A program made the position numbers and the translations under genes. DNA of 64,000 nucleotides from a virus. Its lineage: Duplodnaviria > Caudoviricetes. The stretch is from IMG/VR virus record IMGVR_UViG_3300022553_000001, positions 3,250-67,249 of that record, one strand, 5' to 3'. The notes beneath the pieces are model-generated. The model did no database searches, was not told where the DNA came from, and was given only the letters and a program-made list of their open reading frames with translations. Shown in pieces: positions 18,916-47,320 of the stretch. Numbering within the stretch: position 1 is the stretch's first letter; each line of letters starts with the position of its first letter.

Positions 18916-19416
18916 CTATTCTACCCCATTGCGGTATTCTTGTTTCCGCCGAAACGAATTATCATCAATGGATTTATCTAGTCGTGGAGAGACATTGAAC
19001 AAGTCAAGAAATCCTTGATTGCGATATTCGTAGCCACCCAAGTTTCCCCAAAACACCAACCACTCCGCTTGGGTGGGCTCACGCCCGTGGCTTGATTGCA
19101 TTAGCGATGCGAACTCGTTGCCCTTTTTGGCGTTCCATGCAATGTCTGCAAGGACGACATCATTCAACGGCTGTCCGATAAATTCCGCCGCCGGAACTAA
19201 CCAATCGCCTCCATTGTGAATGTATCCATCAATACACTCCTGTTTGCATGGAGGATTTCCGTACAACGCATAGTCAAATTGTGCTTTCAGTTCAGAGATA
19301 ATCCTTGCTCGCATCTGAGGAACCGTTTCGGCGCTCGCCACCCGAGGAGTTGTGAGCAAAATGGATGCCAACATAAGTGCCACTGAAACAACGATCGTTC
19401 CAATTTTCCACTTCAT
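18916..19416 (-). CDS. secreted/exported hypothetical protein
   Basis: Signal peptide MKWKIGTIVVSVALMLASILL..ASA|ET. Confidence 0.65.
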   Translation of the reverse strand: MKWKIGTIVVSVALMLASILLTTPRVASAETVPQMRARIISELKAQFDYALYGNPPCKQECIDGYIHNGGDWLVPAAEFIGQPLNDVVLADIAWNAKKGNEFASLMQSSHGREPTQAEWLVFWGNLGGYEYRNQGFLDLFNVSPRLDKSIDDNSFRRKQEYRNGVE

Positions 19417-20210
19417 TACATTTGCTCCTTGCCAGAATACTCTGGCGCTATAGTTACTGGAATATGTCGTTTTGCTTTTCGTTCCGATAGAACAACTTGT
19501 TCGCTCGGCTTATATACTAAGAACCGGGCATAATTGAAATCCCGCTCTTGGATAATTTCTGAGTGTCCCTTGACCCAATCCACTAATTCTTGTGGATCGT
19601 GATAATAGTATAAATGTTCTTTCCCGTCGATAGCGTTGCCAGCATTCGTCAGGAAGTTCACCGCGACGCATTTACCCAATCGCTCGATTGTCTGGAGCAA
19701 TACCTTTGGATCAGGGACACGCTCTATCACATCGAACGCAAATACTAAGTCCGCTTTATCGCGGTATTCATCGAATGGATAGAACTGTGCATTGATCTCG
19801 TGAAGTTTGAGCCGCCATTCTAGGAACTTGGTGCATTCGCTCGGATAATCGGTGAACGCGACCTTATATCCACTTTCCGCAAATTGGATTCCGTCCGTGC
19901 CTACACCACAACCGAATTCTAATAATGAAGCCGGCGGCGCAAAATTCTCGCGAATGATGCGGCGATAGGGAATTTTCCACTGGTCTTCACCAAACCAGAT
20001 CAAATGATAGAGTAACGTTTGGCTCTCGCGGTAGAATTGCTCAGCAGTTTTGCCACTTTGCAGAAACACGTCAAACTCTTTTTGCACCGTTTCATCGTGC
20101 CCACCCGCCCACTCGGGCTTGAACTCTTCCCCAGTTTCACGTAAATAAGAGTATAAATCTTCTATGCCTGTTGTCACTGTACCTCCACTATCCAACCGTC
20201 TCGCACTCAA
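19416..20210 (-). CDS. class I SAM-dependent methyltransferase
   Basis: LLEFGCGVG motif I, ADLVFAFDVIE. Confidence 0.85.
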   Translation of the reverse strand: MSARRLDSGGTVTTGIEDLYSYLRETGEEFKPEWAGGHDETVQKEFDVFLQSGKTAEQFYRESQTLLYHLIWFGEDQWKIPYRRIIRENFAPPASLLEFGCGVGTDGIQFAESGYKVAFTDYPSECTKFLEWRLKLHEINAQFYPFDEYRDKADLVFAFDVIERVPDPKVLLQTIERLGKCVAVNFLTNAGNAIDGKEHLYYYHDPQELVDWVKGHSEIIQERDFNYARFLVYKPSEQVVLSERKAKRHIPVTIAPEYSGKEQM

Positions 20211-20649
20211 TCACGAAGTCCAAGGGTATCCATACCGTTGTGCTATTTTGACTTGACAAGAACGTCTCCCCGTTCCACCCGCCTCCGCGCGCGAGCCACA
20301 CTTTCATCGCGCTACCGCCCAGAGTATCATCCGCCATAATCGCAGCGCGCAGATCGGGTTCGGCCTGGAATGTTTTGTTCATCGTCTCAACTGAATTCCC
20401 TGTATCACGGATACAACACTTGATGGAAATCGAGTAGTTGACATATTGCGCGTTACCGAACGCAAACTCTTTCGGCGCGAACGCGGGCGCGAAGAGAATG
20501 TAAATACAACCACTCGTCGTTGTATCGAGGCGCCCCCAGTCATCTTTCGTCAGATTGCCTTTCGGCGAACTGGAATCAAAGATACTGGCGCTCTTGGAAA
20601 CGAGCGTTGCTATTAAAGCATCAACGAGAATCGAGCCACTGGTTAGCAT
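20188..20649 (-). CDS. tail terminator/completion-like protein
   Basis: Position after gp10-like gene; LRAAIMADDTLGG motif. Confidence 0.6.
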   Translation of the reverse strand: MLTSGSILVDALIATLVSKSASIFDSSSPKGNLTKDDWGRLDTTTSGCIYILFAPAFAPKEFAFGNAQYVNYSISIKCCIRDTGNSVETMNKTFQAEPDLRAAIMADDTLGGSAMKVWLARGGGWNGETFLSSQNSTTVWIPLDFVIECETVG

Positions 20650-20650
20650 A

Positions 20651-21190
20651 TCATTCCATTGTCTTTGCGACTAAATCCGCGCCGATACGTTTCGCTGTGC
20701 CTTCGACATTACTCTTGAAGCCGCCGTCCTCGATAGTCAAACGAATGAAATCCAATCCAATGCCGTAGGGGGATTGCCATGCGCCGTGTAATCCCTTTTT
20801 AAGGTAACCTTGATTTGTGCCGTAGTAGGCAATTGACCTCTGCACCGCATAACCCAGTTTCTCATCGCCTAATTTCCAGCGCGCCCATTCCTTGAGCGGC
20901 TCGATCGGCGCCCAATGCGGTCGTGTGCCGTAGAAAACATACTTTGCTTCCGGCGCAGTCGGTCCAACTGCAAGGGTCATCTTGGCTACATCGATTTCAC
21001 TGGATACCGAAGCCATCAGATTGCGCTTATATGCAACTGGCTCGAGTTTGCGTTGCATAATGCGCGTAATCTTCACTCCCAATGATCTGAAATTAGATTC
21101 TACAATCTGTGGTGTCCACTTAGGAAACTTGGCGAATTTGCCGGCAAGTTCGGTTGCACCCTGGGTACTGGTCTGGAAGACTACAGGCAC
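20651..21190 (-). CDS. HK97 gp10-like neck/tail completion protein
   Basis: EAKYVFYGTRPHW..LKEWARWK motif. Confidence 0.7.
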   Translation of the reverse strand: MPVVFQTSTQGATELAGKFAKFPKWTPQIVESNFRSLGVKITRIMQRKLEPVAYKRNLMASVSSEIDVAKMTLAVGPTAPEAKYVFYGTRPHWAPIEPLKEWARWKLGDEKLGYAVQRSIAYYGTNQGYLKKGLHGAWQSPYGIGLDFIRLTIEDGGFKSNVEGTAKRIGADLVAKTME

Positions 21191-22395
21191 AATTCACCAA
21201 TCCACTCTGCCACGTTCTCGGTCGCCTTGTTGCTGTAGCGCATCTGATGTAAGAAATCCTCACGCCGCTCTTCCCAGTCTACGCGCCCTGCGAGTACATT
21301 CTCTACCTCTGCTTTTAATGACTCCGGCTCGCACTCCGGGATCGCATCGTGCTGGATAGAGTAACCGGGCATCTGCACAACAACAGAGGGGACATCCATG
21401 CAAGCCGCATCTACCACTGTGTTGCTGGGACCGAGCGCAATCACGCAATCAGCGCACGCGAGCAGCGGCTCAAGATATAATCGCGTCACCAAACATCGGC
21501 AGCCAAACTCCTCTGCCATCTTCATATAGTTCTGCTCGATACCCTGCGCTTCGCCGGGATGAAGTTTTATTACAAGTTGCTCGAATCCCGCTGTCATCAC
21601 ATATCGTAACACAGTCTCAAAGCGCGTGGGATCATCGTGAGCATTGGTAATTTGTCCCCAACTGGACATATACGCTACTACTAGCTTGCTGCTATCGAGT
21701 TTTAGCGCGCGCAGCGCCCAGTCGCGATCTTTGCGGTATTCTGTCCAGCGGTCGAAGAGCGGCGAACCGGTCAAGCGTACCTCGCCCTTGTAACCATTGC
21801 GCCGGTAGAATTGTTCCATATGCGGTGTTGCGGCGAGATAATCACAGATACTTGTCTCGTGGATATCCGGTGAAATCTCGGGCAACGCATAGGGATTTGC
21901 GTGTGAGACGTGCATTGTCGGAACACCGCGCGTCTTTGCCCACTGCGCCAAGCCACCAAAAACCTCGGTCACATCCTCGTGGGTCACCACCATCTTGATT
22001 TTCCGCGCCTCGCGTAGTGTATCTAGCACAGAGAACCGTACTATCTGATTCGCGAAACTTTGATGCACATAACCGGGTAGCCACTGACTTAGATTTTCAC
22101 CTAGTCCATTACACGAGAAGCTATACCACTCTGGCATTTCCTCGATCCGCTCTGCGATAGAGTCTACTGAATCTGCGAATACTTTTGCTGTGAGCGTGGT
22201 CGCCTCATTATATGCCATCATCTGTGCTTGCTGCGAAATGCCGCGCAGAATCGGTATTACGCGCTCGCCGTAGATTTGCGCCTGCGCCTCGGCGGTCTGG
22301 GGGTCAAATACGGCAATGTCCATTTTGCGTTTTAGGAGCAGCGGTGTCAGGGCTTTAGTTGTTACGCCGCCTGAAAGAAGAATCAGTGGATTCAT
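21181..22395 (-). CDS. GT-B glycosyltransferase, CMP-sugar (sialyl/Kdo/capsule) transferase-like
   Basis: HEDV acidic motif, VSHA, TGSPLFD, IKLHPGE (HP motif), SNTVVDAA; probable start ATG 22395 after the stop at 22398. Confidence 0.7.
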   Translation of the reverse strand: MNPLILLSGGVTTKALTPLLLKRKMDIAVFDPQTAEAQAQIYGERVIPILRGISQQAQMMAYNEATTLTAKVFADSVDSIAERIEEMPEWYSFSCNGLGENLSQWLPGYVHQSFANQIVRFSVLDTLREARKIKMVVTHEDVTEVFGGLAQWAKTRGVPTMHVSHANPYALPEISPDIHETSICDYLAATPHMEQFYRRNGYKGEVRLTGSPLFDRWTEYRKDRDWALRALKLDSSKLVVAYMSSWGQITNAHDDPTRFETVLRYVMTAGFEQLVIKLHPGEAQGIEQNYMKMAEEFGCRCLVTRLYLEPLLACADCVIALGPSNTVVDAACMDVPSVVVQMPGYSIQHDAIPECEPESLKAEVENVLAGRVDWEERREDFLHQMRYSNKATENVAEWIGELCL

Positions 22396-22397
22396 TT

Positions 22398-22792: not shown

Positions 22793-23320
22793 TCATTTAC
22801 CACCAAACCACATCTTATTGAAATCAGTATCCTTGTGCTCGGTATTCTTCCAGGATTCTTCGCTAACATCTTGTCCAACAACCCGAATGTTTCTTGGCGA
22901 AATATCTTTTGCTGATACCACACTAGATTCTGGCATTGAACTATCTCTAAATACCGTTGATCCTTTTGGTAAATAAATTTCCAATATCGAATGCGGTTCA
23001 CCTTCTGAAGTATCTTGAAGCTGTTACTTGATAACCTTGACTTGCTTTAGATTCCCAAGGAATATGCCTTCTACATCATTTGGATATTCGTTTGCACCGC
23101 CTTTCCCAGATTCTCTTGCTAATAAACCTTGCTTTCTAATTGACCCAACATTTGATGTAGGAGTAACATGATAGAGCACTGTTCCCTTGGATAAAGTATA
23201 CGATGGTTGACTACCGCCCCCTCCCCCGCTCCCGCCAACTTCTCCGGGACGTCCGGCATGCTCAAAGTTACCAGAACCCTGACCCCCAAATGATTCTCTA
23301 AGTTTTATTTTCCAAAACAT
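22793..23320 (-). pseudogene. ADP-ribosyltransferase-fold protein with GSGN-HAGRPG linker, split by one in-frame TAA (23024-23026)
   Basis: LYHVT..SIRKQGL..GIFL before the stop; ILEIYLP..D..ISPRNIRV after it, same frame. Confidence 0.6.
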
Positions 23321-24656
23321 TAGCTTTGCTCAAAAGATAACTGTTTAGGCGTTGTGTTATATCGTACTTCATCGGCGCTTTCAAATTCACTCCTCGAAAA
23401 TCTGCTCCAGCAGTCCATCTGTTTGCTGCCACTGTTGCGGCAATCTGAATTTCGTCCAGTACATCGTTTGCCAGTCGCGCCGGCGGTGGCGTCTGTAGAA
23501 GAGTCGCCTGGGCTTTGAGCTGTCGTTCTCTTCGAGTTTTTTCATCGGTTGTCCAATGTACGTAGAACGCCTGTGGTAACTGCGGCATGGCAGCCAATCC
23601 AATTCGTTCATAGGTCTCTACCAATTTGTCCAGATTATTTTCTAACGTCAATCCCCAACCAAACTTGCGCTTTCTCTTTGCATCGCGCTTCAAGAACTCG
23701 ATGTTATCAATCGCCTTAATCAGCGCATCGTGCCATTGTTCCGGCGTGTTCTCGACCACCGCGCCGTGTTCCGCCAGCTCCGCATAGACGTTGCTCTTAC
23801 TCGCAATCCACGGTACACCACAGATCAGATATTCCATTGCCTTAATCCACGAGCGGTGATTGTCGTAACTCTTATATCCCTCGCGCATATCTAGCGGCGC
23901 AATTCCAATGTCGAACGTCTTAACGATGTGCGGCCATTGTTGCGGTGATACGCCGGTTTGTAGTACTAGTTGCTCTTTCGGGATATTGAGCAAATTTGCT
24001 AATCTTGGATCATTGCCACAAATCTTAATCCTGACTTGTGTTCGTTCCTTACAGACCTGTTCCAGTGCTTCTTTGATCCCACTAAATATCCATGAGTCGT
24101 AATGAGAAACCGAGCCGCCCCATCCAATAGTCACTACTCCCGGTTGCAATTTCTGTGGCTGTACGTTCAGATACCAATTACCCTGGGCGTAATTCGGCAC
24201 CCAGTATCCCGGCACTACGTCTTTCCAGTCATCGAGTATAACTTTACTGGGGCTAGTTAGCCCGTCACAATGCCTAAGTCCCTCAGTCAAAAGCGCAACC
24301 GGAGATTCAGACAGCTTTTGCGCGTTCTTGATCCAGAACTCGTGAGCAGGATTACTGTGCGGGAGACTGGGATAATCATCGTCTAAATCCGCCACAACCG
24401 CACGTCGTAAGCCGCGCCAATAATCAATTGCATCTATTATGGATCTATCGATCAGATTCCGCTGTACTACAATCACTTGTGCCGAGCCCACCAGGTCTTG
24501 CACCGCCGGGTTAGAATAGTCAGCGAAACTCTGGATATAAACCAGTTTTGCGGTGTGCTTGCCACTACGATTCAGCACATCTGCGGGGGAAAGGGCGCGC
24601 CACTGACTGCAATTCCACTCCGATTCTCCGTCCGCAAATATTGTACAGATATTCAA
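23298..24656 (-). CDS. glycosyltransferase (GT4-like, GT-B)
   Basis: DLDDDY, IGWGGSVSH, FDIGIAPL..RSWIKAMEY..GVPWIAS. Confidence 0.85.
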   Translation of the reverse strand: MNICTIFADGESEWNCSQWRALSPADVLNRSGKHTAKLVYIQSFADYSNPAVQDLVGSAQVIVVQRNLIDRSIIDAIDYWRGLRRAVVADLDDDYPSLPHSNPAHEFWIKNAQKLSESPVALLTEGLRHCDGLTSPSKVILDDWKDVVPGYWVPNYAQGNWYLNVQPQKLQPGVVTIGWGGSVSHYDSWIFSGIKEALEQVCKERTQVRIKICGNDPRLANLLNIPKEQLVLQTGVSPQQWPHIVKTFDIGIAPLDMREGYKSYDNHRSWIKAMEYLICGVPWIASKSNVYAELAEHGAVVENTPEQWHDALIKAIDNIEFLKRDAKRKRKFGWGLTLENNLDKLVETYERIGLAAMPQLPQAFYVHWTTDEKTRRERQLKAQATLLQTPPPARLANDVLDEIQIAATVAANRWTAGADFRGVNLKAPMKYDITQRLNSYLLSKANVLENKT

Positions 24657-24675: not shown

Positions 24676-25209
24676 TTACTGCCTCACCTCGATGTCATTA
24701 CTCTGATCTTTCTCCTTGTGCGTTGGTGCACGCGGATTCTTGAATTGATCCTTGCTAAACCGCATTGGCTCGCGATCTCCGTCGCTCTGTACAGCAGTCT
24801 TATCGGCCACACTGATCCCGCCCACATAGCCCAGATGTCCATAAGTCAATCCGGCGCGACTCAGATCGCTTGCCAATAATAACTTAATTCCATCGTCAAA
24901 GTCTTTTTGGAAAACTTGACCCCGCGTGCGTTCGCCCGGTGCAAGACGGACATTGGTGCGCGCTTTCTCTGCGCGCGCGACCGCATAGTATGTATTCAGA
25001 TCACCGAGTTGACCATAGATATTACAAGCACTATTGGCGGGCGGAGTGTAACCCTTGGTTGCCAGGACAGTGTCAATTTGATTCGCGCCCTGAGCAATCC
25101 AATTATTCACCTGGCTCTGGGTAGGAGTGGTGCTTGCAGAAAAGTCGCTTGCATTTTGTGTCAGGTTCGAGCAATATGCTGCAACACTAGATGAAGTTGT
25201 ATATGCCAT
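24676..25209 (-). CDS. head-tail adaptor protein
   Basis: MAYTTSSSVAAY..QIDTVLATKGYTPP; position after the capsid block. Confidence 0.7.
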   Translation of the reverse strand: MAYTTSSSVAAYCSNLTQNASDFSASTTPTQSQVNNWIAQGANQIDTVLATKGYTPPANSACNIYGQLGDLNTYYAVARAEKARTNVRLAPGERTRGQVFQKDFDDGIKLLLASDLSRAGLTYGHLGYVGGISVADKTAVQSDGDREPMRFSKDQFKNPRAPTHKEKDQSNDIEVRQ

Positions 25210-25537: not shown

Positions 25538-25774
25538 TCATTTTGCCACCTCTTTCATCCTTCCGCCTTCATCCTTCATCCTTATTTTTATCACCACCTC
25601 CACCCGCCCCGCGCTCAGCCAGCGCAGCAGCCACAGCCGCAGGCGCGAGGCGCGGATGATCTGCACATCGCCGTAAACGGTGCAGCCACGGCGAGCGAGC
25701 AGCGCGGAGACGGCGGAAACGCAGGAGGTGACGGTCTGTTCGGGAGTTGGTTGTAATGCTGGTTTGTGTTTCAA
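25538..25774 (-). CDS. hypothetical protein
   Basis: 78-aa ORF coupled to the fibre gene. Confidence 0.45.
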   Translation of the reverse strand: MKHKPALQPTPEQTVTSCVSAVSALLARRGCTVYGDVQIIRASRLRLWLLRWLSAGRVEVVIKIRMKDEGGRMKEVAK

Positions 25775-26697
25775 TTCCTTACCTCCAGTTTCGCCATTCG
25801 GTTATCCAATTCCTTAATTGCTTCGACAAGGATTGGCGTCATCATACCGAAATCAATCCCCTTGGCGTCTTTAATTTCGTCATCCAGCGGCCACGTGTGA
25901 ATCACTTCAGGAAACACCTTCTCCACCTCCTGCGCGATAAAACCCAGGTAGGGTTTGTTGAGTTTGTAACCATTCAATCGGTCGTTGATTCGCTTGTTCC
26001 ATTCAAAGTTCACACCGACAATCCGCCGCAAGCCCGCCATTGCATTTTGAATGGGTTTTACCTTCCGCTTGAATCGTTTATCAGATGTCGTGGGAAACGA
26101 AGTAGCATGACAAGCCCCATTCACCTGTAGCGGACTGTCCGGTCCCGTCGTCCCAATGCCGACGTTGCCGGAACTATCTATAGTTACTTTATCCCCACCG
26201 CCTAACGCTGCCTGGTAAGACCATTTGAACTTGTCGCTATCCGAGTTATCCACTCCCATTACCCAGCTGACATTTGATACAAATTGAATAACCGGGTCAC
26301 CGCCGATCGCACCGCCGGTTTGTATCGTCAACACAGCGCGTGATAGACCATCGGTGTTGTCGGTGTTGTACACGCGCGCGGTCAAGTCACTTCCTACAGA
26401 TGCGGCGGATACGCTCAGCGCCGCCAGCGTCAGCAGCCCCGCGCTGTTCGTCGCGAGGATCGCCGCCGCCGCGCCGGGGTTGGAACTGGCTCCGTGTGCA
26501 GTGGCAGTTAGTCCGAGATGCGTGTCCACTTGCGCGTGCGTGTTCGTGCCGATATTGGTTACTTTGGTATGATCAATTGCGGTTAAGTTCTTGAGTTGAA
26601 TCTTATTTGTTGTGCCCCCAGATACAATAGGCAATACATCCGAACTAGCCGAGGTTGTAACTTCACTTAACTGCGAAATTTTCAGATCTGCCATCAA
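25771..26697 (-). CDS. fibre protein with C-terminal intramolecular chaperone (peptidase S74)
   Basis: MADLKISQL N-terminus; GNVGIGTTGP repeat; TSDKRFK..GFIAQEVEKVFPE..EAIKEL. Confidence 0.88.
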   Translation of the reverse strand: MMADLKISQLSEVTTSASSDVLPIVSGGTTNKIQLKNLTAIDHTKVTNIGTNTHAQVDTHLGLTATAHGASSNPGAAAAILATNSAGLLTLAALSVSAASVGSDLTARVYNTDNTDGLSRAVLTIQTGGAIGGDPVIQFVSNVSWVMGVDNSDSDKFKWSYQAALGGGDKVTIDSSGNVGIGTTGPDSPLQVNGACHATSFPTTSDKRFKRKVKPIQNAMAGLRRIVGVNFEWNKRINDRLNGYKLNKPYLGFIAQEVEKVFPEVIHTWPLDDEIKDAKGIDFGMMTPILVEAIKELDNRMAKLEVRN

Positions 26698-27176
26698 TAT
26701 TCTCCAGTCAGAAAAGCCCCGCTCTCAGTCAATATACAATCACCGGTTTCCTGCAACAGGTGATAGCGATAGGTCGTACTCATAGAGCCAGAAGAAAGTT
26801 CAAAGGAAGCCCGTGCCGCAACAATTGAATTTACTACTATTCTAGTCTCCGCGCTAGCCATCCGCATCGAGGCACAGTAATTGATGCCACTAATCCCCTG
26901 GGGCGCAAACCGCACAAGTCCTTGTCGTTTGCGCATTTGGTTAAAAATATCAAGGTTCAATCCGGTTGCGTTATTTGCCCATCCTTCATAAGATATTTTT
27001 GCGTCACTGATTCCACTTGCTGAACGAGCAATGTATTCATCTGCGAATATAGAAACTTCTGGATTAATAACGCTCTCGGATAGTATAATATTGTTGCCAT
27101 CTGCGCTTAAATCCGCGCTTGCTCCAGTAGCATCCTCAAAATAAAACAGCGCATTCTTGCCATGGATTTGCCCCAC
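26694..27176 (-). CDS. tail-tube-like paralog 1 with C-terminal fibre-adaptor-like extension
   Basis: IHGKNA..ADGNN..ESVINPE..SG..DAKISYEGWA plus LLQETGDCILTESG tail. Confidence 0.7.
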   Translation of the reverse strand: MGQIHGKNALFYFEDATGASADLSADGNNIILSESVINPEVSIFADEYIARSASGISDAKISYEGWANNATGLNLDIFNQMRKRQGLVRFAPQGISGINYCASMRMASAETRIVVNSIVAARASFELSSGSMSTTYRYHLLQETGDCILTESGAFLTGEY

Positions 27177-39934: not shown

Positions 39935-41149
39935 CTACCTCGTCTCAATCTTGATTTTACTCAGCGCGTCTTTCGCCTTGCCTACCGCTTCCTGGCGTGA
40001 ATTGCCACTTGTCACTACGAACAAAGGGCGGTCCACACAGGTCGTGTACTCTGGAATAATATCGCCGACGTGAACACGCGAAAATACCAATACATCGTCT
40101 GGTACGTCTTTTGTAATATTCGTGATCTTGCCCGGCCTGGGAAATGCCGCCAAGGCGACTGCGTGGCGATATTGGCGCGGCATGAAATCATCCCAGTCGA
40201 TCTCTTCGCCCAGCGCGAGTTTCATCGCGCCGCGAATGTAGTTAACGCCGTGTGCCAATGGAGAAGAAAATTGACAATCCCCGCCCCCCGAAAGCCGCGC
40301 CGTAGTCTCTAAAATTCGTGCGCCTTTGTTGGTCAGCATTACATCTGCCTTAAAAATACCATTCGACATTCCCAAGACTTTGCCGGCTGCCAACACTAAT
40401 TGCTCAACCTTTTGTTGTTTCTCCGGGGAATGCAGAGCTGGGTTATAATGTCCTAACTCAATAGCATACTTTCCAGAGCCAAGAAAAGGACGGTCGACCC
40501 AGTTGAGCCAATTTCCCTTTCCATTATACCACACGGTCTCGACGCTCTGCTCTGTAATTTCTTCACTGGAATCAGGTTGTAGAAGCTCCTCTACCAACAC
40601 CAAGCCGTCACTCGAGACAGAGCGCGTGTGTTCAAATTGTTCTTTAGTTACATCGGCGAATTGATACGCTTTGAATACTCCGCGCGAACCACTACTGTCG
40701 GTGGCTTTAAGAATACACGGAAAGGTCATGTACTCATCTACAAATCTCTCCCACCGGTCATAAACCGCAAAGTGAACACTAGATAAACCTGCATTCAATA
40801 ATCTGACCCGCATCAAAGACTTATTTGCAATGCGTTTTGCTGTATTATAGTCAATCCCCGGCAACCCGAGTTCCTCGGCAACTCCGGCAACAGTCATCTC
40901 TACCGACGCTCCTTCTGTAAAAATCCCAGCGAGATTCTTCAGGGAATGTGCTAACTTAATATGACCCTCAATATCTTTTGTATCAATGAGACAAAATTCA
41001 TCGGCAAGCTTAGCACAGGCACACTCTGGATTTTTGTCGGTCACAATAACATAAAGTCCTAGTTCGTGTGCAATTTTTACAGCGGTCTGTTGGAGCAATC
41101 CTCCCGCTACCAGAATGAGACTCTTCCCAGAATATTTAGACATTACCAT
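39935..41149 (-). CDS. ATP-grasp ligase
   Basis: AGGLLQ, NKSLMR, ILKATDSSGSRGV, ADV..ILETTARLSGG. Confidence 0.88.
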   Translation of the reverse strand: MVMSKYSGKSLILVAGGLLQQTAVKIAHELGLYVIVTDKNPECACAKLADEFCLIDTKDIEGHIKLAHSLKNLAGIFTEGASVEMTVAGVAEELGLPGIDYNTAKRIANKSLMRVRLLNAGLSSVHFAVYDRWERFVDEYMTFPCILKATDSSGSRGVFKAYQFADVTKEQFEHTRSVSSDGLVLVEELLQPDSSEEITEQSVETVWYNGKGNWLNWVDRPFLGSGKYAIELGHYNPALHSPEKQQKVEQLVLAAGKVLGMSNGIFKADVMLTNKGARILETTARLSGGGDCQFSSPLAHGVNYIRGAMKLALGEEIDWDDFMPRQYRHAVALAAFPRPGKITNITKDVPDDVLVFSRVHVGDIIPEYTTCVDRPLFVVTSGNSRQEAVGKAKDALSKIKIETR

Positions 41150-41933
41150 CTCTCCTTAGTGCACTGTCTATCAATCCCAATGTTTCCTCTTCTTGTTTTT
41201 TAATAAGACACTCTGGCAATCTCAAGATTCCCAGGCCCAATCCCCTAAGCTTTATATCCTTGCGTATATCCTTTTCTTTTGCGCCGGGTAAATTGTGCCA
41301 ATAGTCACCGTCTGTCTCAATACAGAGTTTCTGATCAGGACAAAAGAAATCAACGATACCAATTCCGTTAAATACTTTTTCTGGAACCACCCGCACTCCC
41401 CACGAAAGAAGAACCTCCAAAACTCTTTTCTCAATCTCTGTCTGTTTAACAAATCCACTTTTTCTAAGTTTTATCGCTTGTTCCCTTGAAGATTCCCTCT
41501 GCCGATCTGTTTTAGGCAAAGAATTCATAGTTCTAATATTGCGCCTAGATGCCTGCTTCTGAGATTCGGTATGTGGTAATTTTCCAACTATTCTGCCGTT
41601 CTTCCTCGATTTCTCTTTCATCTCTGGGCGATTCATTACAACAGTAAAATTCTTTCTCGATGCCTCGCGCATTTCGGGGGTCTTATTACGCGCAACCGTA
41701 ACTCGCCGCATTTCCTCCGTTTTATTCCGCCTCACCACCATCTGCCTGCTTCTCGTCCTGCCTTCAGAAGACTGATTCAGGGCGATCAAGTGTTTTCTAG
41801 ACCATTCTCTATGATCTACATTTCTAGCACTTGATTGGCGCATTTTATTTTTCGTCTCTTCACTCGCCTTCTTTCCTAATTTAGCCTGCCTCATCCGCTC
41901 TTTTGATTCTTCTGTCTGTTTACCGTGTTCCAT
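41136..41933 (-). CDS. NUMOD3-repeat DUF559/Vsr-like endonuclease (free-standing homing endonuclease)
   Basis: SEETKNKMRQS repeats; VDFFCPDQKLCIETDGDYWH. Confidence 0.8.
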   Translation of the reverse strand: MEHGKQTEESKERMRQAKLGKKASEETKNKMRQSSARNVDHREWSRKHLIALNQSSEGRTRSRQMVVRRNKTEEMRRVTVARNKTPEMREASRKNFTVVMNRPEMKEKSRKNGRIVGKLPHTESQKQASRRNIRTMNSLPKTDRQRESSREQAIKLRKSGFVKQTEIEKRVLEVLLSWGVRVVPEKVFNGIGIVDFFCPDQKLCIETDGDYWHNLPGAKEKDIRKDIKLRGLGLGILRLPECLIKKQEEETLGLIDSALRRDGNV

Positions 41934-42820
41934 ATTTTCACCGCCATCACTACCAAATCTCTTCCCATCCCTGTGCTCGCCATCGCTTGCTGGATATGCA
42001 CCAAATCCTGTATCCCCTCTGCGCTCTGGTGCATCGCCATTTCGAACTTCTTGCGTCGGGCGTGGACTTGTCGCCCTAGTTTCTGATTGCCTATATAATC
42101 ATCGCCCTGGAGTAAAAACATTTCCATAGGATAAGTAGAATAGAATTGCTGGATCTGAAAACCGTGCTTGCCCAACAATAAACCCAAAGATCGCAAATTG
42201 AAATAGTTTATATGTGACTTATCAATCCACCAAGCGTCTTTCTTTTTCAGTTCGCGCTGGGCAATCTGTTGAATATTAGTGAAATCATTAGGAACTGCGA
42301 GCAATAACCGACCCCCGGGCTTAAGAGTCTTTCTGAATTTCTCCAGTACCGCGCTCGGATCGAGCAAATGCTCCAAGACCCACGCGGCGCGAATGACCTC
42401 TGCTGAGTTCTCAACCATTTCTGCAGTTTCAATGAATCCTTGTTGATAAGGTAATTGATATTGTTTAAGAACTTGGCAGGCAAACGGACTAGGCTCCAAT
42501 CCCTCTGCGTCCCAGCCTAACTTCTGAGCATATTCTAGACATTGCCCAAACCCCGCGCCGATATCGAGAAAATGATTCGCGCTCTTCTGTGCCACTCCCA
42601 GCATTGCTAATTCCATTCGTAGGGATGCCTCGATCCAATCGGCATCTTCCTCTGATTCCTGGAGCCAGGACTTTTTGTCCTGTTCGTAAAAGGGATGCTG
42701 ATAATATTCGGTCAATTGTTTTTCAGTCGGCAATGGAAATAGGTGGGCAAACTTACATTGCTCACAATCCATAACTTCCAGTTTGTCATTTCTACCAATG
42801 ATTGCGCCGGTGTGAGTCAT
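41891..42820 (-). CDS. class I SAM methyltransferase with N-terminal Cys pair
   Basis: CEQC, FLDIGAGFG, VLEHLLDP, LAVPND, HINYF. Confidence 0.88.
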   Translation of the reverse strand: MTHTGAIIGRNDKLEVMDCEQCKFAHLFPLPTEKQLTEYYQHPFYEQDKKSWLQESEEDADWIEASLRMELAMLGVAQKSANHFLDIGAGFGQCLEYAQKLGWDAEGLEPSPFACQVLKQYQLPYQQGFIETAEMVENSAEVIRAAWVLEHLLDPSAVLEKFRKTLKPGGRLLLAVPNDFTNIQQIAQRELKKKDAWWIDKSHINYFNLRSLGLLLGKHGFQIQQFYSTYPMEMFLLQGDDYIGNQKLGRQVHARRKKFEMAMHQSAEGIQDLVHIQQAMASTGMGRDLVVMAVKIWNTVNRQKNQKSG

Positions 42821-43166
42821 TCTGTTGTATCCATAAAAAATTGAATACAGAATGCACTCACTAATAAATATATGAAAGCCACAAAATAACCTTTTTCACC
42901 CCCTACCAATATTGCAATTATATACACGCTAAGCACCCAAAAAACAAACAGAATCAAAGAGACAAAAATAGTCATTTCCCCTCCGTCACTTCTTTCCAAC
43001 CTAGTGCGTCCAATATACTTTCAGAAAAATCACGATAAGTAATCCTATCGTGCTTTGGAATCTTAAATTCGCTTTTAGGCATTTCTTCATCTGATTCAAG
43101 TCCGTGTAAATCAATAAACTCACATAATATGCTATCAATTACTTTTATCGCTTGTTGTTTTGTCAT
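42817..43166 (-). CDS. two small ORFs (one hypothetical, one membrane)
   Basis: 42972-43166 hypothetical; 42817-42975 hydrophobic. Confidence 0.45.
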
Positions 43167-43167
43167 T

Positions 43168-44145
43168 TCATTTCCTCCCGGTCACTTCTTTCCAGAACTC
43201 GCCGATCCGCTGCCAAGTCCCAGTATCAGATGCTTTCTGCACACATTCCATAAATTCTAAATTCAATATGCCCTGCAGAAGATCCGGTTGTCCTTGGTAT
43301 TTTTGTTCAATGCACTTGACCAAATGCTCCATCTCCGCGCGATACATTGCGTCCGCGTCGCTATAGTCCATATTCCAAACCGTTGAATTGTTATCAACAA
43401 TATTATCCAATCCAGTAGTCACAGCACAAATCTCATTGCGCCACGGCGATTGCCAAAAATCATTATGTATGCTGACCTGCGCGCCGTTCTTCATCCGCAA
43501 AAGCAATGTAGCATCATCATCAACCTCAATCCCCAACTCGCCGCTATTGGAAATCAGCCCCGTGACCGCCTCGATCTCACCAAAGAGCCATTGCGCTTGG
43601 TCTAGTGAATGCGAGAGCGACGATAAAACAATTCCGCCATTTTCTTTGCTTGCGTAAATCAACGAATGATAATCGCGCCCTGGTGTCCAGTCTTTTAAAT
43701 GCTGCCCAGAGTTAATTGAGCCATATAAAAGGTTCTGCTTATTCACAAACTGCGCACGCCAAGCAATTAGACTCGGGCAAAACCGATACGATTGACCCAT
43801 AATACCCTGGAGACTATTTACCTGCATCTTATAAACCAGTTGCGCAATCTTCTTCTTATCTAGAGAATTGCTTAGCGGCTTTTCGATAAATAAATTACAA
43901 CCTCTGCCGGCGACTCGTAACGCAATATCTAGATGACTTAATGGCGGCGTGCAAATCAGTGCGACATCAAACTCATAATTCATTGCATAGTCTACGTTGC
44001 CAAATCCTACTACGTGCAACCCGTTAACCAACAATGCAACCTTACTAGAATCAACATCGCAGATTGCGACCTCGACTCCCAATTCCCTGAGCAGCCGAGC
44101 GCGACGAGAACCCATCGATCCTGCGCCGATAACTAATGCTCTCAT
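43168..44145 (-). CDS. Gfo/Idh/MocA family oxidoreductase
   Basis: IGAGSMG, ICTPP..H, FIEKPL, SHSLD..WLFG. Confidence 0.9.
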   Translation of the reverse strand: MRALVIGAGSMGSRRARLLRELGVEVAICDVDSSKVALLVNGLHVVGFGNVDYAMNYEFDVALICTPPLSHLDIALRVAGRGCNLFIEKPLSNSLDKKKIAQLVYKMQVNSLQGIMGQSYRFCPSLIAWRAQFVNKQNLLYGSINSGQHLKDWTPGRDYHSLIYASKENGGIVLSSLSHSLDQAQWLFGEIEAVTGLISNSGELGIEVDDDATLLLRMKNGAQVSIHNDFWQSPWRNEICAVTTGLDNIVDNNSTVWNMDYSDADAMYRAEMEHLVKCIEQKYQGQPDLLQGILNLEFMECVQKASDTGTWQRIGEFWKEVTGRK

Positions 44146-45302
44146 TGATTCGCTATTTCCTTACACGTATCATAACATGCCTCTACCGTCTTATAAATAA
44201 CCTCTTCCGTATGTGCCATTGTCACGTAAAACGGATGAGCCATTATATAGAATCCGCGCGCGAACATCCCATCGCGCCACTTATTCAGCCATTCTTTTTC
44301 CGCATTAACCAAGATCGGTCTGGTTGCGTTTCCTACCATCCGTGCCGACAAGTCAAAGTTCTCAAATACGCTGTTCATCTGCACTTTGAGCAATTCGCCG
44401 CGTGCATAGAGCGTAGGGTAGAGAATTGTTTTGTTCTCTGAAATCCACTTTAAGGTTGCCGCCGCGACACTAGTCGCCAGTCCACTGCCATTAAATGTAC
44501 TAGAATAGTGAACTCCGGCCGTCAACAGATTCATTACATCGCTTCTACCCAATAAGGCACTTATGTTAAAACCGTTGCCCAGGGTTTTTCCGCAACAGAC
44601 CAAGTCTGCCTCGACGCCATATCGCTCTTGCGCCCCGCCCGGCGCGACACGGAAATTTGTTACGACATCGTCGAGAATGAATAGTGCGCCGACTTTCGTT
44701 GCCCAAATACGACATTGCATAAGAAATTGACATGCCTCTATATCCTCTGGAGGTACCTCAATAATAATAGCCGCAATATGCGAAGGTAGCTTAATAATCG
44801 CATCAAAATCGCCCCAGTTAAACTGCCGAGTCAGCCACCACATTTCGCTAGGTATCCCACGACGCTCATCAATACCTAAATCATTCGCGTTGGGATTATG
44901 GGGAAAGGAAGTTCCAGTACCGTGGTAGCCTGAAAACGCAATCACGTTGCGTTTTGTAAAAGCCCGCGCCAGCCGCGTTGCCGCCTCGTTCGGAGAACTG
45001 CCATCACTCATAAAGCGGCAACTTTCCATGTTCGGATAGAATTCTTGCAACCGTTCGGCGGCGAGCAATTCACTTTCCGCCGGCAATGAAGTAGCACAAT
45101 TCATCGCGGCGTCGTACAGAGCATCCTTCCACCATTGCGGAGAATAACCATCAAGCGCGCCGTGAAGTCCCATTGCCCAATCCACGACCGGCGTACGACC
45201 CTGAATTGCCATATAGCAACCATAGGACAATGCGCTTCGCTGCTTCGTGCGGGTGATCCAATCGCCTTTGCTGGTGATTGAGGCGCCGCCAACAATATTC
45301 AT
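44142..45302 (-). CDS. class III PLP aminotransferase (GSA-aminomutase-like)
   Basis: SDGSSPNEAATRLAR, GYHG, ILDDVVTNFR, GKTLGNG, SSTFNG. Confidence 0.85.
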   Translation of the reverse strand: MNIVGGASITSKGDWITRTKQRSALSYGCYMAIQGRTPVVDWAMGLHGALDGYSPQWWKDALYDAAMNCATSLPAESELLAAERLQEFYPNMESCRFMSDGSSPNEAATRLARAFTKRNVIAFSGYHGTGTSFPHNPNANDLGIDERRGIPSEMWWLTRQFNWGDFDAIIKLPSHIAAIIIEVPPEDIEACQFLMQCRIWATKVGALFILDDVVTNFRVAPGGAQERYGVEADLVCCGKTLGNGFNISALLGRSDVMNLLTAGVHYSSTFNGSGLATSVAAATLKWISENKTILYPTLYARGELLKVQMNSVFENFDLSARMVGNATRPILVNAEKEWLNKWRDGMFARGFYIMAHPFYVTMAHTEEVIYKTVEACYDTCKEIANQ

Positions 45303-45444
45303 CTTAATTCGCTCCGATCCTCACGAATTATCATTAGCCACACAAATAGATCGAGAATAAATCCCGCCAATACCCAAATCCAATCGCCATGAGCAATGGC
45401 ATAGAATACCATTGCCACAGGTACAAAAGAAACCAAGAGACAAA

Positions 45445-46182
45445 TCACCCGCATAGTTTTGCTATCCTTTCAAACTCGTGCGGTAACAATGACCACGCTG
45501 CTTCTATATTATCAGTGGATAACGCAAAATGTTTCTCGATCACGGATACTCCGAGTTTAGTCGCAAGCCAACAATCTAAATTTGATTTGGTGTGTGAACT
45601 CCATCCCCACTTTAGTTTCTGCGAATTGAAAAAATGCGCCCAGCGTGGCAATGCTAAGAGCGCGCGAACCAATGGCGTGGGATATTGGGAAATAGTTGCC
45701 AAGTGCATGGTATGACGGTCGTAGTTGATATATTTCTGCTTGGAGATCGAGCGGTAGATTCTTATATCCGCCCCGCCGTGAGTCAAGGTACTTAGAATCA
45801 AACCGATATTGCCTTGTTCCCGTGCTGCTAACTTGATAAAATCCCCATCCCGTGCAACCATATCCACTGCCTTATCATCAAAGACGCTCGCGCCGACGAA
45901 TAAGTCCATCGAATGGGCGACTTCGACAAAATCAAACCACTTGCGGCGAGGAAATTCGAGAGGGCGTTTTTTATCTACCTCTTTATTATCACTAACATCG
46001 TGCCATCCGGCTTCTGTACTGGTTTCCCAATAGATCTGTGCGGTCTTCCTAAAATGTTCCGCTTTCCATAATTGCACTTTGACCGCATCTGCGCCAGCAA
46101 GTTTCGCTGCCGCACACCACACAGTAAAATCCCAATCAGGAGCTGGGTTGCTGCCGAATTCAGCAATGATAAATGGATTCAT
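45445..46182 (-). CDS. neuB: NeuB/PseI-family nonulosonate synthase lacking the C-terminal AFP/SAF domain
   Basis: FIIAEFGSN, GADAVKVQ, SVFD, ISQYPTP, SSHT, IEKHF. Confidence 0.82.
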   Translation of the reverse strand: MNPFIIAEFGSNPAPDWDFTVWCAAAKLAGADAVKVQLWKAEHFRKTAQIYWETSTEAGWHDVSDNKEVDKKRPLEFPRRKWFDFVEVAHSMDLFVGASVFDDKAVDMVARDGDFIKLAAREQGNIGLILSTLTHGGADIRIYRSISKQKYINYDRHTMHLATISQYPTPLVRALLALPRWAHFFNSQKLKWGWSSHTKSNLDCWLATKLGVSVIEKHFALSTDNIEAAWSLLPHEFERIAKLCG

Positions 46183-46354
46183 CGTTTCTCCAGCCAAGTT
46201 GCCCAAGAACCAATGGATTTAGATGAATGGGCGAAACACATACCTATTTCTCTATAACCACGCAATTTGCAAAGTTGAATTGTTCTATTCTGAATTTGCT
46301 CAAAGAATAAACTACAAAGTGTCATCCTTCTATGACAACAATTCTGGCAATATT

Positions 46355-47320
46355 TTATTGGATTTGCTTTAGCCATTCTCGAATCTCCTCGACAGATAGC
46401 GGGGTCAAATTGCTCGCGTAGAAATCGTCTGGATACATTTTGTCTCCCCAGATTTCTGCCGATACCCATTCCTTAGCTACTGGCAAAACAACAAAGCAAT
46501 TATCTTGTTGCAAGGTTCGATAAGCCTCGTGCTGCGAAATTAGGGTTTCGTGCATCTTTTCACCAGGCCGCATGCCTACTAATTCCACCGGCCAAATGTC
46601 GTTCCTAAGATCAAGCCATGCTTTGGCCAAATCCCCTATTGACATTGAGCGAATTTTCGGTACAAATATCTCACCGCCGACCATATTGCACAGAGCATTT
46701 TCCACGAGCAGACACGCCTCGTCAATCGTCATGAAAAAGCGCGTCATTGCCAAGTTGGTAATTTGAATCCTCCCGACCTCAGCCAACTGTTTTTCCCAAA
46801 GCGGTATTACCGATCCCCGCGACCCCCAAACATTGCCATATCGAACACAGGAAAAACGCGTTTGACTAGAGTATACATTGGCTTGGCAAAAAAGACTCTC
46901 CATTACCGCCTTACTTTTCCCATAAAGGTTAACTGGAGCACATGCCTTATCCGAAGACAAAGCGACAACCTTTTTCACGCCACAATAAATCGCCGCGTCA
47001 ATTACATTCATCGCTCCAAAAATATTGGTTAGAATCGCTTCTTTTGGATTATATTCCGCTGTATCAATTTGTTTCAGCGCCGCCGCATGAATGACAATAT
47101 CTATTCCGTCAAATGCTCGTTCAAGTCTATTCTCATCACGCACATCACCAATGAACCAACGCAATCGAAAATCATCATTCAACGCGACGCGCATCTGTTG
47201 CTGCTTTAATTCATCGCGTGAAAAAATGCAAACACGTTCATAGTCCGAAGATTTCAATAACCTCCGAATGAACGCATTTCCAAACGTGCCGGTTGCTCCC
47301 GTGATTAAAATTGAAGACAC
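46355..47320 (-). CDS. pseB: UDP-GlcNAc 4,6-dehydratase (PseB/FlaA1-like)
   Basis: TGATGTFG, FSRDELKQ, HAAALKQ, SSDKA..NLYGKSK, RYGNVWGSRGSVIP, MTRF. Confidence 0.92.
   Translation of the reverse strand: MSSILITGATGTFGNAFIRRLLKSSDYERVCIFSRDELKQQQMRVALNDDFRLRWFIGDVRDENRLERAFDGIDIVIHAAALKQIDTAEYNPKEAILTNIFGAMNVIDAAIYCGVKKVVALSSDKACAPVNLYGKSKAVMESLFCQANVYSSQTRFSCVRYGNVWGSRGSVIPLWEKQLAEVGRIQITNLAMTRFFMTIDEACLLVENALCNMVGGEIFVPKIRSMSIGDLAKAWLDLRNDIWPVELVGMRPGEKMHETLISQHEAYRTLQQDNCFVVLPVAKEWVSAEIWGDKMYPDDFYASNLTPLSVEEIREWLKQIQ

Follow-up and report, generated by a model that had tools for sequence, protein, structure and literature searches.

For what purpose would a tailed phage carry a set of sugar-synthesis genes between its packaging and head genes, and to what would the product be attached? 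These questions are raised by a 64 kb stretch of the 67,249-bp IMG/VR virus record IMGVR_UViG_3300022553_000001 (positions 3,250 to 67,249; hereafter the window), which belongs to an uncultured, tailed phage. A cassette of enzymes related to nonulosonic acid biosynthesis is located there between the genes of the large terminase (TerL) and the portal, and two adjacent genes for glycosyltransferase-like proteins lie within the head-tail module. Nonulosonic acids are the bacterial counterparts of sialic acids and shape charge, immune recognition and receptor binding. The in silico analysis points to a two-part phage glycosylation system, conserved in the lineage, in which the cassette would provide an activated sugar and the transferase pair would place it on a protein of the phage's own virion; the chances that this proposal is right or wrong are, in our judgement, about equal.

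The sugar cassette of the window and its relatives

The cassette was delineated through Pfam and NCBIfam profile scans of the open reading frames (ORFs) of the window, the NCBIfam scores being judged against the curated equivalog cut-offs. It occupies 47.3-37.0 kb on the minus strand, the strand that carries every gene from 14.8 to 52.6 kb. Together with a fold search, the scans recovered all enzymes named in the original prediction, each in its place on this strand. The features of the cassette are, in gene order:

46355-47320, minus: PseB-like UDP-N-acetylglucosamine (UDP-GlcNAc) 4,6-dehydratase of the inverting type, first gene of the cassette (Polysacc_synt_2, 314 bits)
45445-46182, minus: NeuB/PseI-like ulosonate synthase of 245 amino acids, TIM barrel only (Pfam NeuB, 75.6 bits)
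45299-45454, minus: hydrophobic ORF of 51 codons between the synthase and aminotransferase genes
44142-45302, minus: class-III aminotransferase, similar to glutamate-1-semialdehyde (GSA) aminomutase, the sole aminotransferase of the cassette (Pfam Aminotran_3)
43168-44145, minus: Gfo/Idh/MocA oxidoreductase (Pfam GFO_IDH_MocA N- and C-terminal domains)
Between this gene and the methyltransferase gene, minus: two small ORFs, one at ~42820-42980 (~51 codons)
41891-42820, minus: class-I S-adenosylmethionine-dependent methyltransferase (Methyltransf_23, 76 bits)
41136-41933, minus: homing-endonuclease-like gene inside the cassette, HNH/NUMOD3 with a DUF559/Vsr-like part (Pfam DUF559, MTES_1575, Vsr, NUMOD3)
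39935-41149, minus: ATP-grasp ligase, L-amino-acid-ligase-like (Pfam LAL_C2, ATP-grasp_4)
Between this gene and the next, minus: ORF of 95 amino acids
38437-39411, minus: mannitol-dehydrogenase-fold oxidoreductase, preceding the cytidylyltransferase gene (weak matches to both Pfam Mannitol_dh domains, N- and C-terminal)
Between this gene and the next, minus: ORF of 101 amino acids
37047-38138, minus: CTP_transf_3 cytidylyltransferase of 363 amino acids, at the end of the cassette (72 bits over residues 3-120)
35617-35588, minus: strong intrinsic-terminator-like hairpin between the cassette and the portal start (11-bp stem with 7 G-C pairs, T-tract)

The dehydratase encoded by the first gene has TIGR03589 (PseB) as its full-length best match, with 371.9 bits (cut-off 407.75), followed by FnlA with 233 and LegB with 63 bits, and it is 35-48% identical to its counterparts in the relatives. 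The synthase is devoid of the SAF (antifreeze-like) domain, and its scores are far under the cut-offs both for PseI (TIGR03586, 66 bits; cut-off 340) and for NeuB (57 bits). The family of this short NeuB is rare, with 34 clusters of 217-260 residues among 5.8 billion proteins, and the best solved relative of its profile is the pseudaminic acid synthase 8h2c (E 1.6e-24), before SpsE and NeuB. The motifs for metal and phosphoenolpyruvate (PEP) binding are conserved, namely K35 and Q37 (K-x-Q), S195-S196-H197 and E216-K217-H218 (E-K-H). With these motifs kept and a solved PseI as the closest structure, the short protein is predicted to be a real ulosonate synthase. The family appears to be essentially viral, because only three weak cellular matches, of 25-27% identity, were returned by its profile from 185,579 species genomes; tblastn of the short NeuB against cultured phages gave no match.

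The remaining enzymes are more loosely related to characterized families. The aminotransferase reaches 145 bits for the NCBIfam GSA-aminomutase-like model, below its cut-off, and its best solved relatives are 4zm3/4zm4 (“Aminotransferase”) and GSAM. For the Gfo/Idh/MocA protein, which has homologues in the related cassettes, the best NCBIfam match is the archaeal UDP-GlcNAc 3-dehydrogenase, with 64 bits and far under the cut-off. The methyltransferase is 27-35% identical to those in the cassettes of all six related phages. The ATP-grasp ligase, 24-57% identical across all cassettes, has 4dim and the L-amino-acid ligase 3vot as solved relatives and is a candidate for the N-acylating enzyme that replaces PseH. 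The mannitol-dehydrogenase-fold protein obtains 73 bits for the NCBIfam model M1PDH (cut-off >269). As for the cytidylyltransferase, KdsB-type NCBIfam models score best and PseF (TIGR03584) gets only 20 bits (cut-off 206), all of them below cut-off, while among solved structures 6oew (“Cytidylyltransferase”, E 1.9e-14) ranks first and KdsB next. In an alignment from seven phages, the motifs R-x-x-S-x-R-L-P-x-K and D-C-P of the KdsB/NeuA/PseF fold family are conserved, together with the Cys residues; the C-terminal extension of the enzyme is Cys-rich and zinc-ribbon-like.

The profile of the short NeuB retrieved four IMG/VR contigs (G001-G004), and tblastn with all window proteins followed. The capsid proteins of these contigs are 45-46% and the portals 36-47% identical to those of the window, and their GC content is 50-62%, compared to 48% in the window. 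All four share the same cassette order: PseB (not in G004), NeuB, class-III aminotransferase, Gfo/Idh/MocA protein, methyltransferase, ATP-grasp ligase and cytidylyltransferase. The larger contigs G005 (104.8 kb) and G006 (62.7 kb) also carry the cassette, so that it is present in six other IMG/VR contigs, with capsids 45-52% identical and GC of 50-62%. The class-III aminotransferase gene follows the short NeuB gene, directly or after a short gap, in every locus of sufficient length, and in metagenome loci the short NeuB is flanked, with few exceptions, by PseB and the aminotransferase where the contig is long enough. Synteny in related viral contigs had been proposed earlier as a check, with mis-assembly as one of the circumstances that would overturn the prediction; the same cassette order in independent contigs answers that objection.

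In the cassettes of G001-G004, a protein of glycosyltransferase B (GT-B) fold is encoded between the oxidoreductase and the methyltransferase. The copies of G001 and G002 have PseG (TIGR03590) as their best match, below cut-off (E 9e-18 and 7e-23), those of G003 and G004 are their homologues, and the family profile matches the solved PseG 3hbm. The occurrence of a PseG-like hydrolase in four relatives together with PseB therefore makes a pathway of the pseudaminic acid (Pse) type well supported at the level of sequence. The earlier proposal that the phage makes an unusually tailored nonulosonate activated with cytidine monophosphate (CMP) is likewise well supported, by the conserved cassette core, the PseG-like proteins of the relatives and a NeuB that is closest to PseI. 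The closest version of the cassette was found in the groundwater contig L045, directly upstream of a portal gene whose product is 62% identical to that of the window. This contig holds the only homologue of the mannitol-dehydrogenase-like gene (34% identity) and no PseG-like gene; because the latter is missing there too, the PseG-less variant of the cassette is no one-off product of decay.

The cassette has been found in four positions: between terminase and portal (window and apparently L045), upstream of the terminase (G001, G004), on the downstream side of the tail genes (G005) and in divergent orientation to the structural operon (G006). Its accessory genes vary and comprise short-chain dehydrogenases/reductases (SDR), a KduI/IolB-like protein, a second NeuB (G005) and homing endonucleases. 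Several other cassettes contain an SDR, and in G001 and G005 its gene immediately precedes that of the cytidylyltransferase. As the main explanation, a reading of the locus as a CDP-mannitol or teichoic-type pathway (mannitol-dehydrogenase-like enzyme, cytidylyltransferase and TagF-like protein) was rejected, given that the dehydrogenase is not conserved (an SDR is present in some relatives) and that NeuB and PseB are co-conserved with the cytidylyltransferase. The second NeuB gene of G005 (L041:13663-14523; Pfam 175 bits) is more canonical and lies beside the short one, which hints at two ulosonate products or a recent replacement.

The homing-endonuclease-like gene at 41136-41933, which the original prediction does not name, is an insertion and not a pathway enzyme, and no homing endonuclease was found at this position in the relatives. 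A GIY-YIG/NUMOD3 endonuclease gene (L010:11248-12315) is located at another spot of the G001 cassette, which suggests that endonucleases have repeatedly invaded the module. The hydrophobic small ORFs at 45299-45454 and ~42820-42980 apparently encode single or double transmembrane helices. Many of the closest cassette relatives (L043, L045, L050, L052-L054, L056, L057 and L060) come from Hainich groundwater assemblies, the names of which carry the label “01um”, probably a 0.1-um filter fraction.

The predicted transferase pair of the head-tail module

The second part of the system is located among the genes of the virion. The pair and the structural genes that define its position are:

49817-51334, minus: large terminase TerL (PHROGs/Pfam)
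32672-35566, minus: Mu-type portal fused to a long C-terminal region (PHROGs/Pfam)
29008-29988, minus: major capsid protein (PHROGs/Pfam)
26694-27176, 18427-18879 and 17989-18417, minus: three paralogous major-tail-protein genes (phrog_10528)
25771-26697, minus: fibre with an S74 chaperone domain (PHROGs/Pfam)
24676-25209, minus: conserved gene of 177 amino acids with a Ser/Thr-rich N-terminus, head-tail-adaptor-like
23298-24656, minus: GT4-like GT-B glycosyltransferase (Pfam Glyco_trans_1_4, 33 bits, and Glycos_transf_1, 27 bits; marginal)
21181-22395, minus: GT-B protein with a His-Pro (HP) motif, ~404 residues
14869-17250, minus: tape measure (PHROGs/Pfam)

The GT4-like gene is directly upstream of the gene for the HP-motif protein, the real start of which is placed at about residue 34 of the listed ORF because its homologues begin there. 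With the family profile of the HP-motif protein, 13 more viral loci were retrieved, all of the same lineage, with a GC content of 50-63% and capsids that are 45-52% identical. The order capsid ... 24676-like gene – GT4 – HP-motif GT-B – major tail protein – tape measure is common to twelve of these loci, and the contig of the thirteenth begins within the GT-B gene. In G001, G002 and G004, the homologues of the HP-motif protein are encoded away from the cassette. The contig G003 overlaps L023 with 100% identity over 2,075 bp, and therefore the G003 phage has the pair as well. The pair is present in all seven phages known to carry the cassette, and it is fixed in the head-tail module while the cassette moves among four places. 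The median identities are 41% for GT4, 46% for the capsid, 34% for the tail tube and 28% for TerL, and GT4 identity to 15 related loci is 39-44%, compared to 45-52% for the capsid. GT4 is thus conserved like the capsid and more than the tail tube or the terminase. The 177-residue protein, which we infer to be a head-tail adaptor, matches nothing in Pfam, PHROG or NCBIfam. Its homologues in 15 loci are 36-44% identical, and their genes invariably precede GT4, either immediately or at a small distance.

Foldseek comparison of the AlphaFold2 (AF2) model of the GT4-like protein, with a predicted local distance difference test (pLDDT) score of 69, is headed by PimA, MshA and BshA and also includes Gtf3/GtfC; tblastn against cultured phages gave two weak matches only. 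The HP-motif protein is modelled confidently as a GT-B fold (pLDDT 93.5) and had no tblastn match in cultured phages. Its family is small and largely viral (249 representatives among 1.8 billion), and has the conserved motifs HED, G-x-P-x-x-D, Y-x-x-(S/T)-W-x-Q, K-x-H-P and P-S-N. The HP motif itself, K-L-H-P, corresponds to residues 277-280, of which H279 and P280 are retained by 90% or more of 48 members. Among the same 48 members, the Pfam family Glyphos_transf (PF04464) is matched by 32 (best E 5e-11) and Epimerase_2 (PF02350) by 14. Against solved structures, the family profile finds the TagF-like Cps3D at E 2e-6, a 2-epimerase at 2e-4, TagF at 0.016 and TarL at 0.035. With TagF-like proteins as relatives, the protein leans in sequence towards enzymes using CDP-activated donors with a CMP leaving group.

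Fold comparison gives another ranking. Foldseek and VIA-align place UDP-GlcNAc 2-epimerases first (E 9e-11; NeuC Z 22.1, others Z 20-22), followed in VIA-align by generic GT-B proteins (~19), TagF (Z 18.5) and TarL (18.4); no GT38, GT52 or GT80 structure is among the fold matches listed. In the N-terminal domain, V-V-H-E-D-V-T aligns with the epimerase segment V-L-V-H-G-D-T-T (first Asp motif, H-E-D/H-G-D). Of the motifs of the catalytic Asp/Glu/Glu triad of the epimerases, H-x-E-A-G and P-E-E were not aligned and are not seen in the family consensus. Annotations among the ESM-Atlas neighbours are a mixture of Glyphos_transf, Epimerase_2 and Capsule_synth; the cluster closest to the protein is 100% viral. 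LIC12162, another Pfam family among these neighbours, was dropped as a lead, as the Leptospira nonulosonate paper does not name that locus tag.

The original prediction regarded the protein as a CMP-sugar transferase on account of its HP motif. The conserved K-x-H-P agrees with this, but by score the protein falls outside the BFO_1060 family, and it lacks the D/E-D/E-G motif of sialyl- and nonulosonyltransferases, the nearest acidic segment being H-E-D-V, with no Gly. A search for Maf-type transferases (MptE-like, PF01973) gave no match in G000, G001, G004, G005 and G006, while control genomes do match; because no Maf-type transferase was found in the lineage, the HP-motif protein is the only candidate for the nonulosonate transferase. 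On this ground it is judged a likely CMP-nonulosonate transferase, and also because the relatives have a separate PseG-like enzyme, because its gene stays with GT4 in the structural block and not with the movable cassette, and because a remote homologue in a second phage lineage is encoded directly upstream of a cytidylyltransferase gene.

This second lineage is represented by the metagenome contigs L084 (SMTZ1_10000254) and L058 (Ga0172366_10000221), SU10-like podophages with portals of the P22/SU10 type and SU10 adaptors. Their NeuB genes are more canonical, and in both contigs the adaptor gene is immediately followed by a cassette with NeuB, PseB and a class-III aminotransferase. The L084 cassette, to which a FemAB-like gene is also added, ends with a Glyphos_transf protein directly upstream of a CTP_transf_3 gene, followed by a tail-fibre gene; in L058, GNAT and radical-SAM genes are added. 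The L084 Glyphos_transf protein aligns with the family profile of the HP-motif protein at an hhalign probability of 93% (E 2.6e-7) in the C-terminal domain, including the H-P position. Because L084 pairs a nonulosonate cassette of the class-III aminotransferase kind with a TagF-like GT-B protein, the predicted pathway and such a protein inside the virion module would have arisen or spread in two unrelated phage groups.

Proposed pathway, acceptors and competing explanations

From the gene content, folds and motifs, and from co-occurrence and synteny in the relatives, we infer the following substrates, step order, transferase activity and acceptor. In the first part, the movable cassette would make a CMP-activated, non-standard nonulosonate of the pseudaminic acid type from host UDP-GlcNAc, PEP and cytidine triphosphate (CTP). 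The PseB-like enzyme would convert host UDP-GlcNAc to the 4-keto-6-deoxy intermediate, and the class-III aminotransferase would aminate it in place of PseC. The ATP-grasp ligase would then acylate the new amine with an amino acid or another carboxylate, taking the role of PseH, and the methyltransferase would add a methyl group. The release of uridine diphosphate (UDP) may be performed by the PseG-like enzyme in four relatives and, in the window phage, presumably by a host or an unrecognised protein. The SAF-less PseI-like synthase would condense the product with PEP, the Gfo/Idh/MocA and mannitol-dehydrogenase-fold enzymes would epimerise or otherwise redox-tailor the sugar (the prophage pair EpaA/EpaB, PMC12053666, offers a comparison), and the zinc-ribbon CTP_transf_3 enzyme would activate it with CMP. 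In the second part, the pair most likely works in the cytoplasm and equips a virion protein with a short glycan: the GT4 protein, of a retaining-GT4-type fold, would add a hexose or N-acetylhexosamine, which the HP-motif enzyme would cap with the nonulosonate. A sulfotransferase and a second methyltransferase, described below, may provide optional extra tailoring in the window phage.

Candidate acceptors are the capsid protein, a Ser/Thr-rich protein of 223 amino acids encoded after the capsid (28105-28776), the 177-residue adaptor-like protein, the S74 fibre and the tail-tube paralogues. Attachment to the virion, as claimed in the original prediction, is plausible and gains from the fixed position of the pair, from its capsid-like conservation and from the second lineage, in which a similar cassette adjoins the adaptor gene. 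A wider and more detailed version of the proposal is possible but falls short of probable: the siphophage lineage and, independently, the SU10-like podophages would coat their virions with a self-made pseudaminic acid derivative bearing a methylated aminoacyl group, sulfated in the window phage, and attached by a largely viral, TagF-like family of CMP-nonulosonate protein transferases.

Several results weigh against virion glycosylation by this route. All cassette enzymes match their NCBIfam models below the curated equivalog cut-offs. A profile of the PseG-like proteins of the relatives found no match in the whole 67-kb record, and because the window phage is thus devoid of a PseG equivalent, the pathway as drawn has a gap at UDP release. 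The scans revealed no equivalent of PseC (DegT/DnrJ/EryC1 type), only the class-III aminotransferase, and no PseH (GNAT N-acetyltransferase) among the cassette ORFs scanned. The HP-motif protein of the window has no Pfam match of its own, and its sole NCBIfam match, BFO_1060 (NF046086), is weak, with 28.7 bits over ~60 residues (cut-off 200). Structure comparison puts it closest to the NeuC/WecB 2-epimerases and not to any transferase, and these tools do not distinguish it from phosphotransferases of the TagF type or enzymes of the NeuC/WecB type. As the related contigs are fragmentary, with a completeness of 5-72%, statements of gene absence are weak.

The same pathway and transferases could instead remodel the host surface, acting on an undecaprenyl-diphosphate (Und-PP) unit of O-antigen or capsule, on an S-layer or flagellin glycan or on teichoic acid, which would mask the receptor or keep the progeny off debris. 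Envelope polymers are the normal targets of TagF-like and GT4 enzymes, and the lack of PseG in the window phage suggests that the host already runs a Pse or legionaminic acid (Leg) pathway. Prophage-encoded EpaA and EpaB retailor host capsule Pse (PMC12053666), an arrangement resembled by the dehydrogenase gene beside the cytidylyltransferase gene in the window, and phage O-acetyltransferases act on capsule nonulosonates (PMC6586298); the cited examples of host-surface conversion are, however, all prophages. What renders this explanation rather unlikely is the pair, which is fixed in the head-tail module and conserved like the capsid in phages with a GC content of 48-63%, whereas host acceptors should differ across such phages. 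Of the ORFs scanned, none matched a Pfam family that is characteristic of flippases, polymerases or oligosaccharyltransferases. A further possibility concerns the HP-motif protein alone, which may be an enzyme acting on nucleoside-diphosphate sugars, either a NeuC/LegG-like hydrolysing 2-epimerase or a substitute of PseG, and fill the vacant UDP-release step of the window. In that case, GT4 would be the sole transferase, or the one for the nonulosonate would have gone unrecognised. The fold ranking led by NeuC, the Epimerase_2 matches of some family members and the N-domain motif agree with such a role, but sequence profiles favour TagF-like proteins over epimerases, both by the number of members matched (32 against 14) and by E value (2e-6 against 2e-4). 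The inverting PseB route needs no 2-epimerase, and in G001, G002 and G004, which have a PseG-like gene in the cassette and the homologue of the HP-motif protein outside it, such an enzyme would be redundant. Since its gene never moves with the cassette but stays by GT4 in the structural block, and since the remote homologue in L084 is encoded directly upstream of a cytidylyltransferase gene, we find a biosynthetic role improbable.

Glycosylation of DNA, in which the transferases would place one or more sugars on bases of the phage genome activated by hydroxymethylation or in another way, has a precedent in phage GT-B enzymes that glycosylate 5-hydroxymethylcytosine (bioRxiv 10.1101/2023.12.21.572611). 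One of these apparently uses 3-deoxy-D-manno-octulosonic acid (Kdo), and a cytidylyltransferase is encoded in one such cluster. This precedent, like the presence of the T4 DNA alpha-glucosyltransferase among the fold matches of the GT4-like protein, also belongs to the points against a virion target. The pair lies, however, among the head-tail genes of the late strand and not with the replication or modification genes. Two thymine-hypermodification genes of the window have no homologue in the incomplete contigs G001, G004, G005 and G006, all of which keep the sugar system, and a thymidylate-synthase-like gene was found only in G005 and a C5-methyltransferase only in G004, which for incomplete contigs is weak but consistent evidence; on balance, DNA as the target is quite improbable. 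An assembly artefact, with a host polysaccharide locus misjoined into the phage contig, might be suspected from the GC content, which at 36-50 kb is slightly lower (43-48%) than in the head genes (50-53%; 48% in the window overall). The strand and GC skew nevertheless run unbroken from the cluster into its flanks, phage homing endonucleases are found inside and beside the cluster, the short NeuB has no close cellular homologue (best 27% among the 185,579 species genomes), and the cassette lies beside portal or terminase genes in at least seven other contigs, assembled independently from different samples. An artefact is therefore hardly conceivable.

Known systems, accessory genes and genome setting

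To our knowledge, only a few actinobacteriophages are known to glycosylate their virions with enzymes of the phage, apparently with simple sugars, and phage-borne nonulosonate genes are known only as two-gene add-ons altering host capsules. The virion sugars of mycobacteriophages are said to be ordinary host hexoses. Giant viruses and chloroviruses (Mimivirus fibrils, PBCV-1 capsid) decorate the virion by means of self-encoded sugar-nucleotide pathways and transferases; they are eukaryotic viruses and use other sugars, such as bacillosamine, viosamine and rhamnosamine. A literature search found no description of a complete phage nonulosonate pathway or of nonulosonate on phage particles, and none tying pseudaminic acid to a virus-encoded pathway, though some publications mention both.

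Compared to the CMP-Pse pathway of Campylobacter and Helicobacter (PseB/C/H/G/I/F), the cassette has in common the PseB-like first enzyme, a synthase closest to PseI, a CTP_transf_3 enzyme and, in four relatives, a PseG-like protein. There are major differences, which relate to the aminotransferase (class III instead of DegT/PseC), the use of an ATP-grasp ligase and a methyltransferase instead of the GNAT PseH, the SAF-less synthase, the zinc-ribbon-like tail of the cytidylyltransferase, the extra Gfo/Idh/MocA and mannitol-dehydrogenase-fold enzymes, and the lack of PseG in the window. The combination of class-III aminotransferase, ATP-grasp ligase, SAF-less synthase and TagF-like transferase is a distinct variant.

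According to Freeman 2023 (cited through PMC12363180), the mycobacteriophages Che8, Corndog and Myrna use transferases of their own to glycosylate the capsid and the tail tube. The likeness lies in phage-encoded glycosyltransferases for capsid or tail tube, shown there and proposed here from genes. In PMC12363180, those phages are credited only with glycosyltransferases and a sugar-biosynthesis cassette is not mentioned, whereas the window phage encodes a pathway of eight enzymes; the transferase families also differ from those of the pair. In Tannerella forsythia, knock-outs of Tanf_01245 and TFUB4_00887 (BFO_1060 family), which are described as TagB-like with an HP motif, lose the Pse/Leg derivative on the S-layer O-glycan (PMC5420450). 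These transferases share with the HP-motif protein the GT-B/TagB-like character and the HP motif, and they offer a parallel for a CMP-activated Pse/Leg derivative as the terminal sugar of a protein O-glycan, although the match is weak and the family of the phage protein is a separate one and largely viral. TagF, TarL and Cps3D are its best sequence-profile relatives, with the motifs G-x-P-x-x-D, Y-x-x-T-W and H-P and the CMP leaving group in common. In contrast to these systems, no genes for CDP-glycerol or CDP-ribitol synthesis were recognised in the window, the co-conserved pathway is predicted to make a CMP-ulosonate, and the N-terminal domain is more 2-epimerase-like. In Acinetobacter baumannii, the prophage proteins EpaA (CTP_transf_3 with a reductase) and EpaB (SDR) convert capsule Pse to 8-epi-Pse (PMC12053666), and there too a phage-borne CTP_transf_3 enzyme is paired with a dehydrogenase or reductase on a Pse-type sugar. 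Those two genes, however, belong to temperate phages, retailor host capsule Pse and come with neither a full pathway nor linkage to virion genes.

If the proposal is true, it would describe a new class of transferase for nonulosonate and a phage particle that “sialylates” itself via its own pathway. A pathway of eight or nine genes, kept together with two transferases of the head-tail module across hosts of differing GC, would imply that an acidic glycan coat brings a benefit that is both strong and general. Such a benefit may consist in particle stability, less non-productive adsorption, evasion of grazers or of lectin-type host defences, or adhesion to mucus-like matrices. For glycobiology, the locus offers a SAF-less PseI-type synthase, a class-III aminotransferase route to diamino sugars and a candidate family of CMP-nonulosonate transferases.

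The remaining features of the late region and its surroundings are:

51739-52641, minus: RNA-ligase-family gene, just upstream of the terminase region
48616-49506, minus: GIY-YIG endonuclease, between terminase and sugar cassette
48107-48619, minus: NT5C-type 5'-nucleotidase, between terminase and cassette
32061-32597, minus: protein of 178 amino acids (phrog_16594), between the portal and a scaffold-like gene
27481-28104, minus: sulfotransferase-like gene (Sulfotransfer_3, 35 bits, and the N-terminal PAPS-loop region of Sulfotransfer_1)
19416-20210, minus: second class-I methyltransferase, in the tail-proximal block (Methyltransf_23, 46 bits)

The sulfotransferase-like protein has no homologue in any related locus, and the sole homologue of the second methyltransferase among the relatives is encoded inside the G003 sugar cassette (28% identity). 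Both genes assigned earlier to sulfation and methylation of the glycan are thus present, but because they are window-specific, these modifications are accessory at best. The phage promoter that had been placed at 47736, ahead of the cassette, was not upheld: TATAAT is perfect there but TTGATT is only 6 nt upstream, a consensus scan makes no call, the region has 20 promoter-like sites compared to 21.2 in shuffled sequence, and the motif occurs once in the window. A promoter-like site with 10 of 12 positions is found at 35707-35679, just upstream of the hairpin that follows the cassette.

By capsid and portal, siphophages of Arthrobacter and Roseobacter come closest among cultured phages (36-42% identity). 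A megablast search of 29-52 kb against cultured phages gave no nucleotide match, and a single-protein scan of viral contigs with the portal found no relative. The nearest cultured phage by portal and capsid, Arthrobacter phage Kovu, carries neither glycosyltransferase nor sugar genes within the annotated 26 kb of its packaging, head and neck genes. The major-tail-protein paralogue at 26694-27176 is far from the other two, directly upstream of the S74-chaperone fibre gene and among head-completion genes. Three unrelated metagenome loci (L113, L114, L120) have homologues of the 178-residue protein at their ends, and a homologue of the 5'-nucleotidase lies at the matching position in L045. A further homing-endonuclease-like gene is located at 60915-61733, and the types seen combine NUMOD3 either with DUF559/Vsr-like domains or with GIY-YIG.

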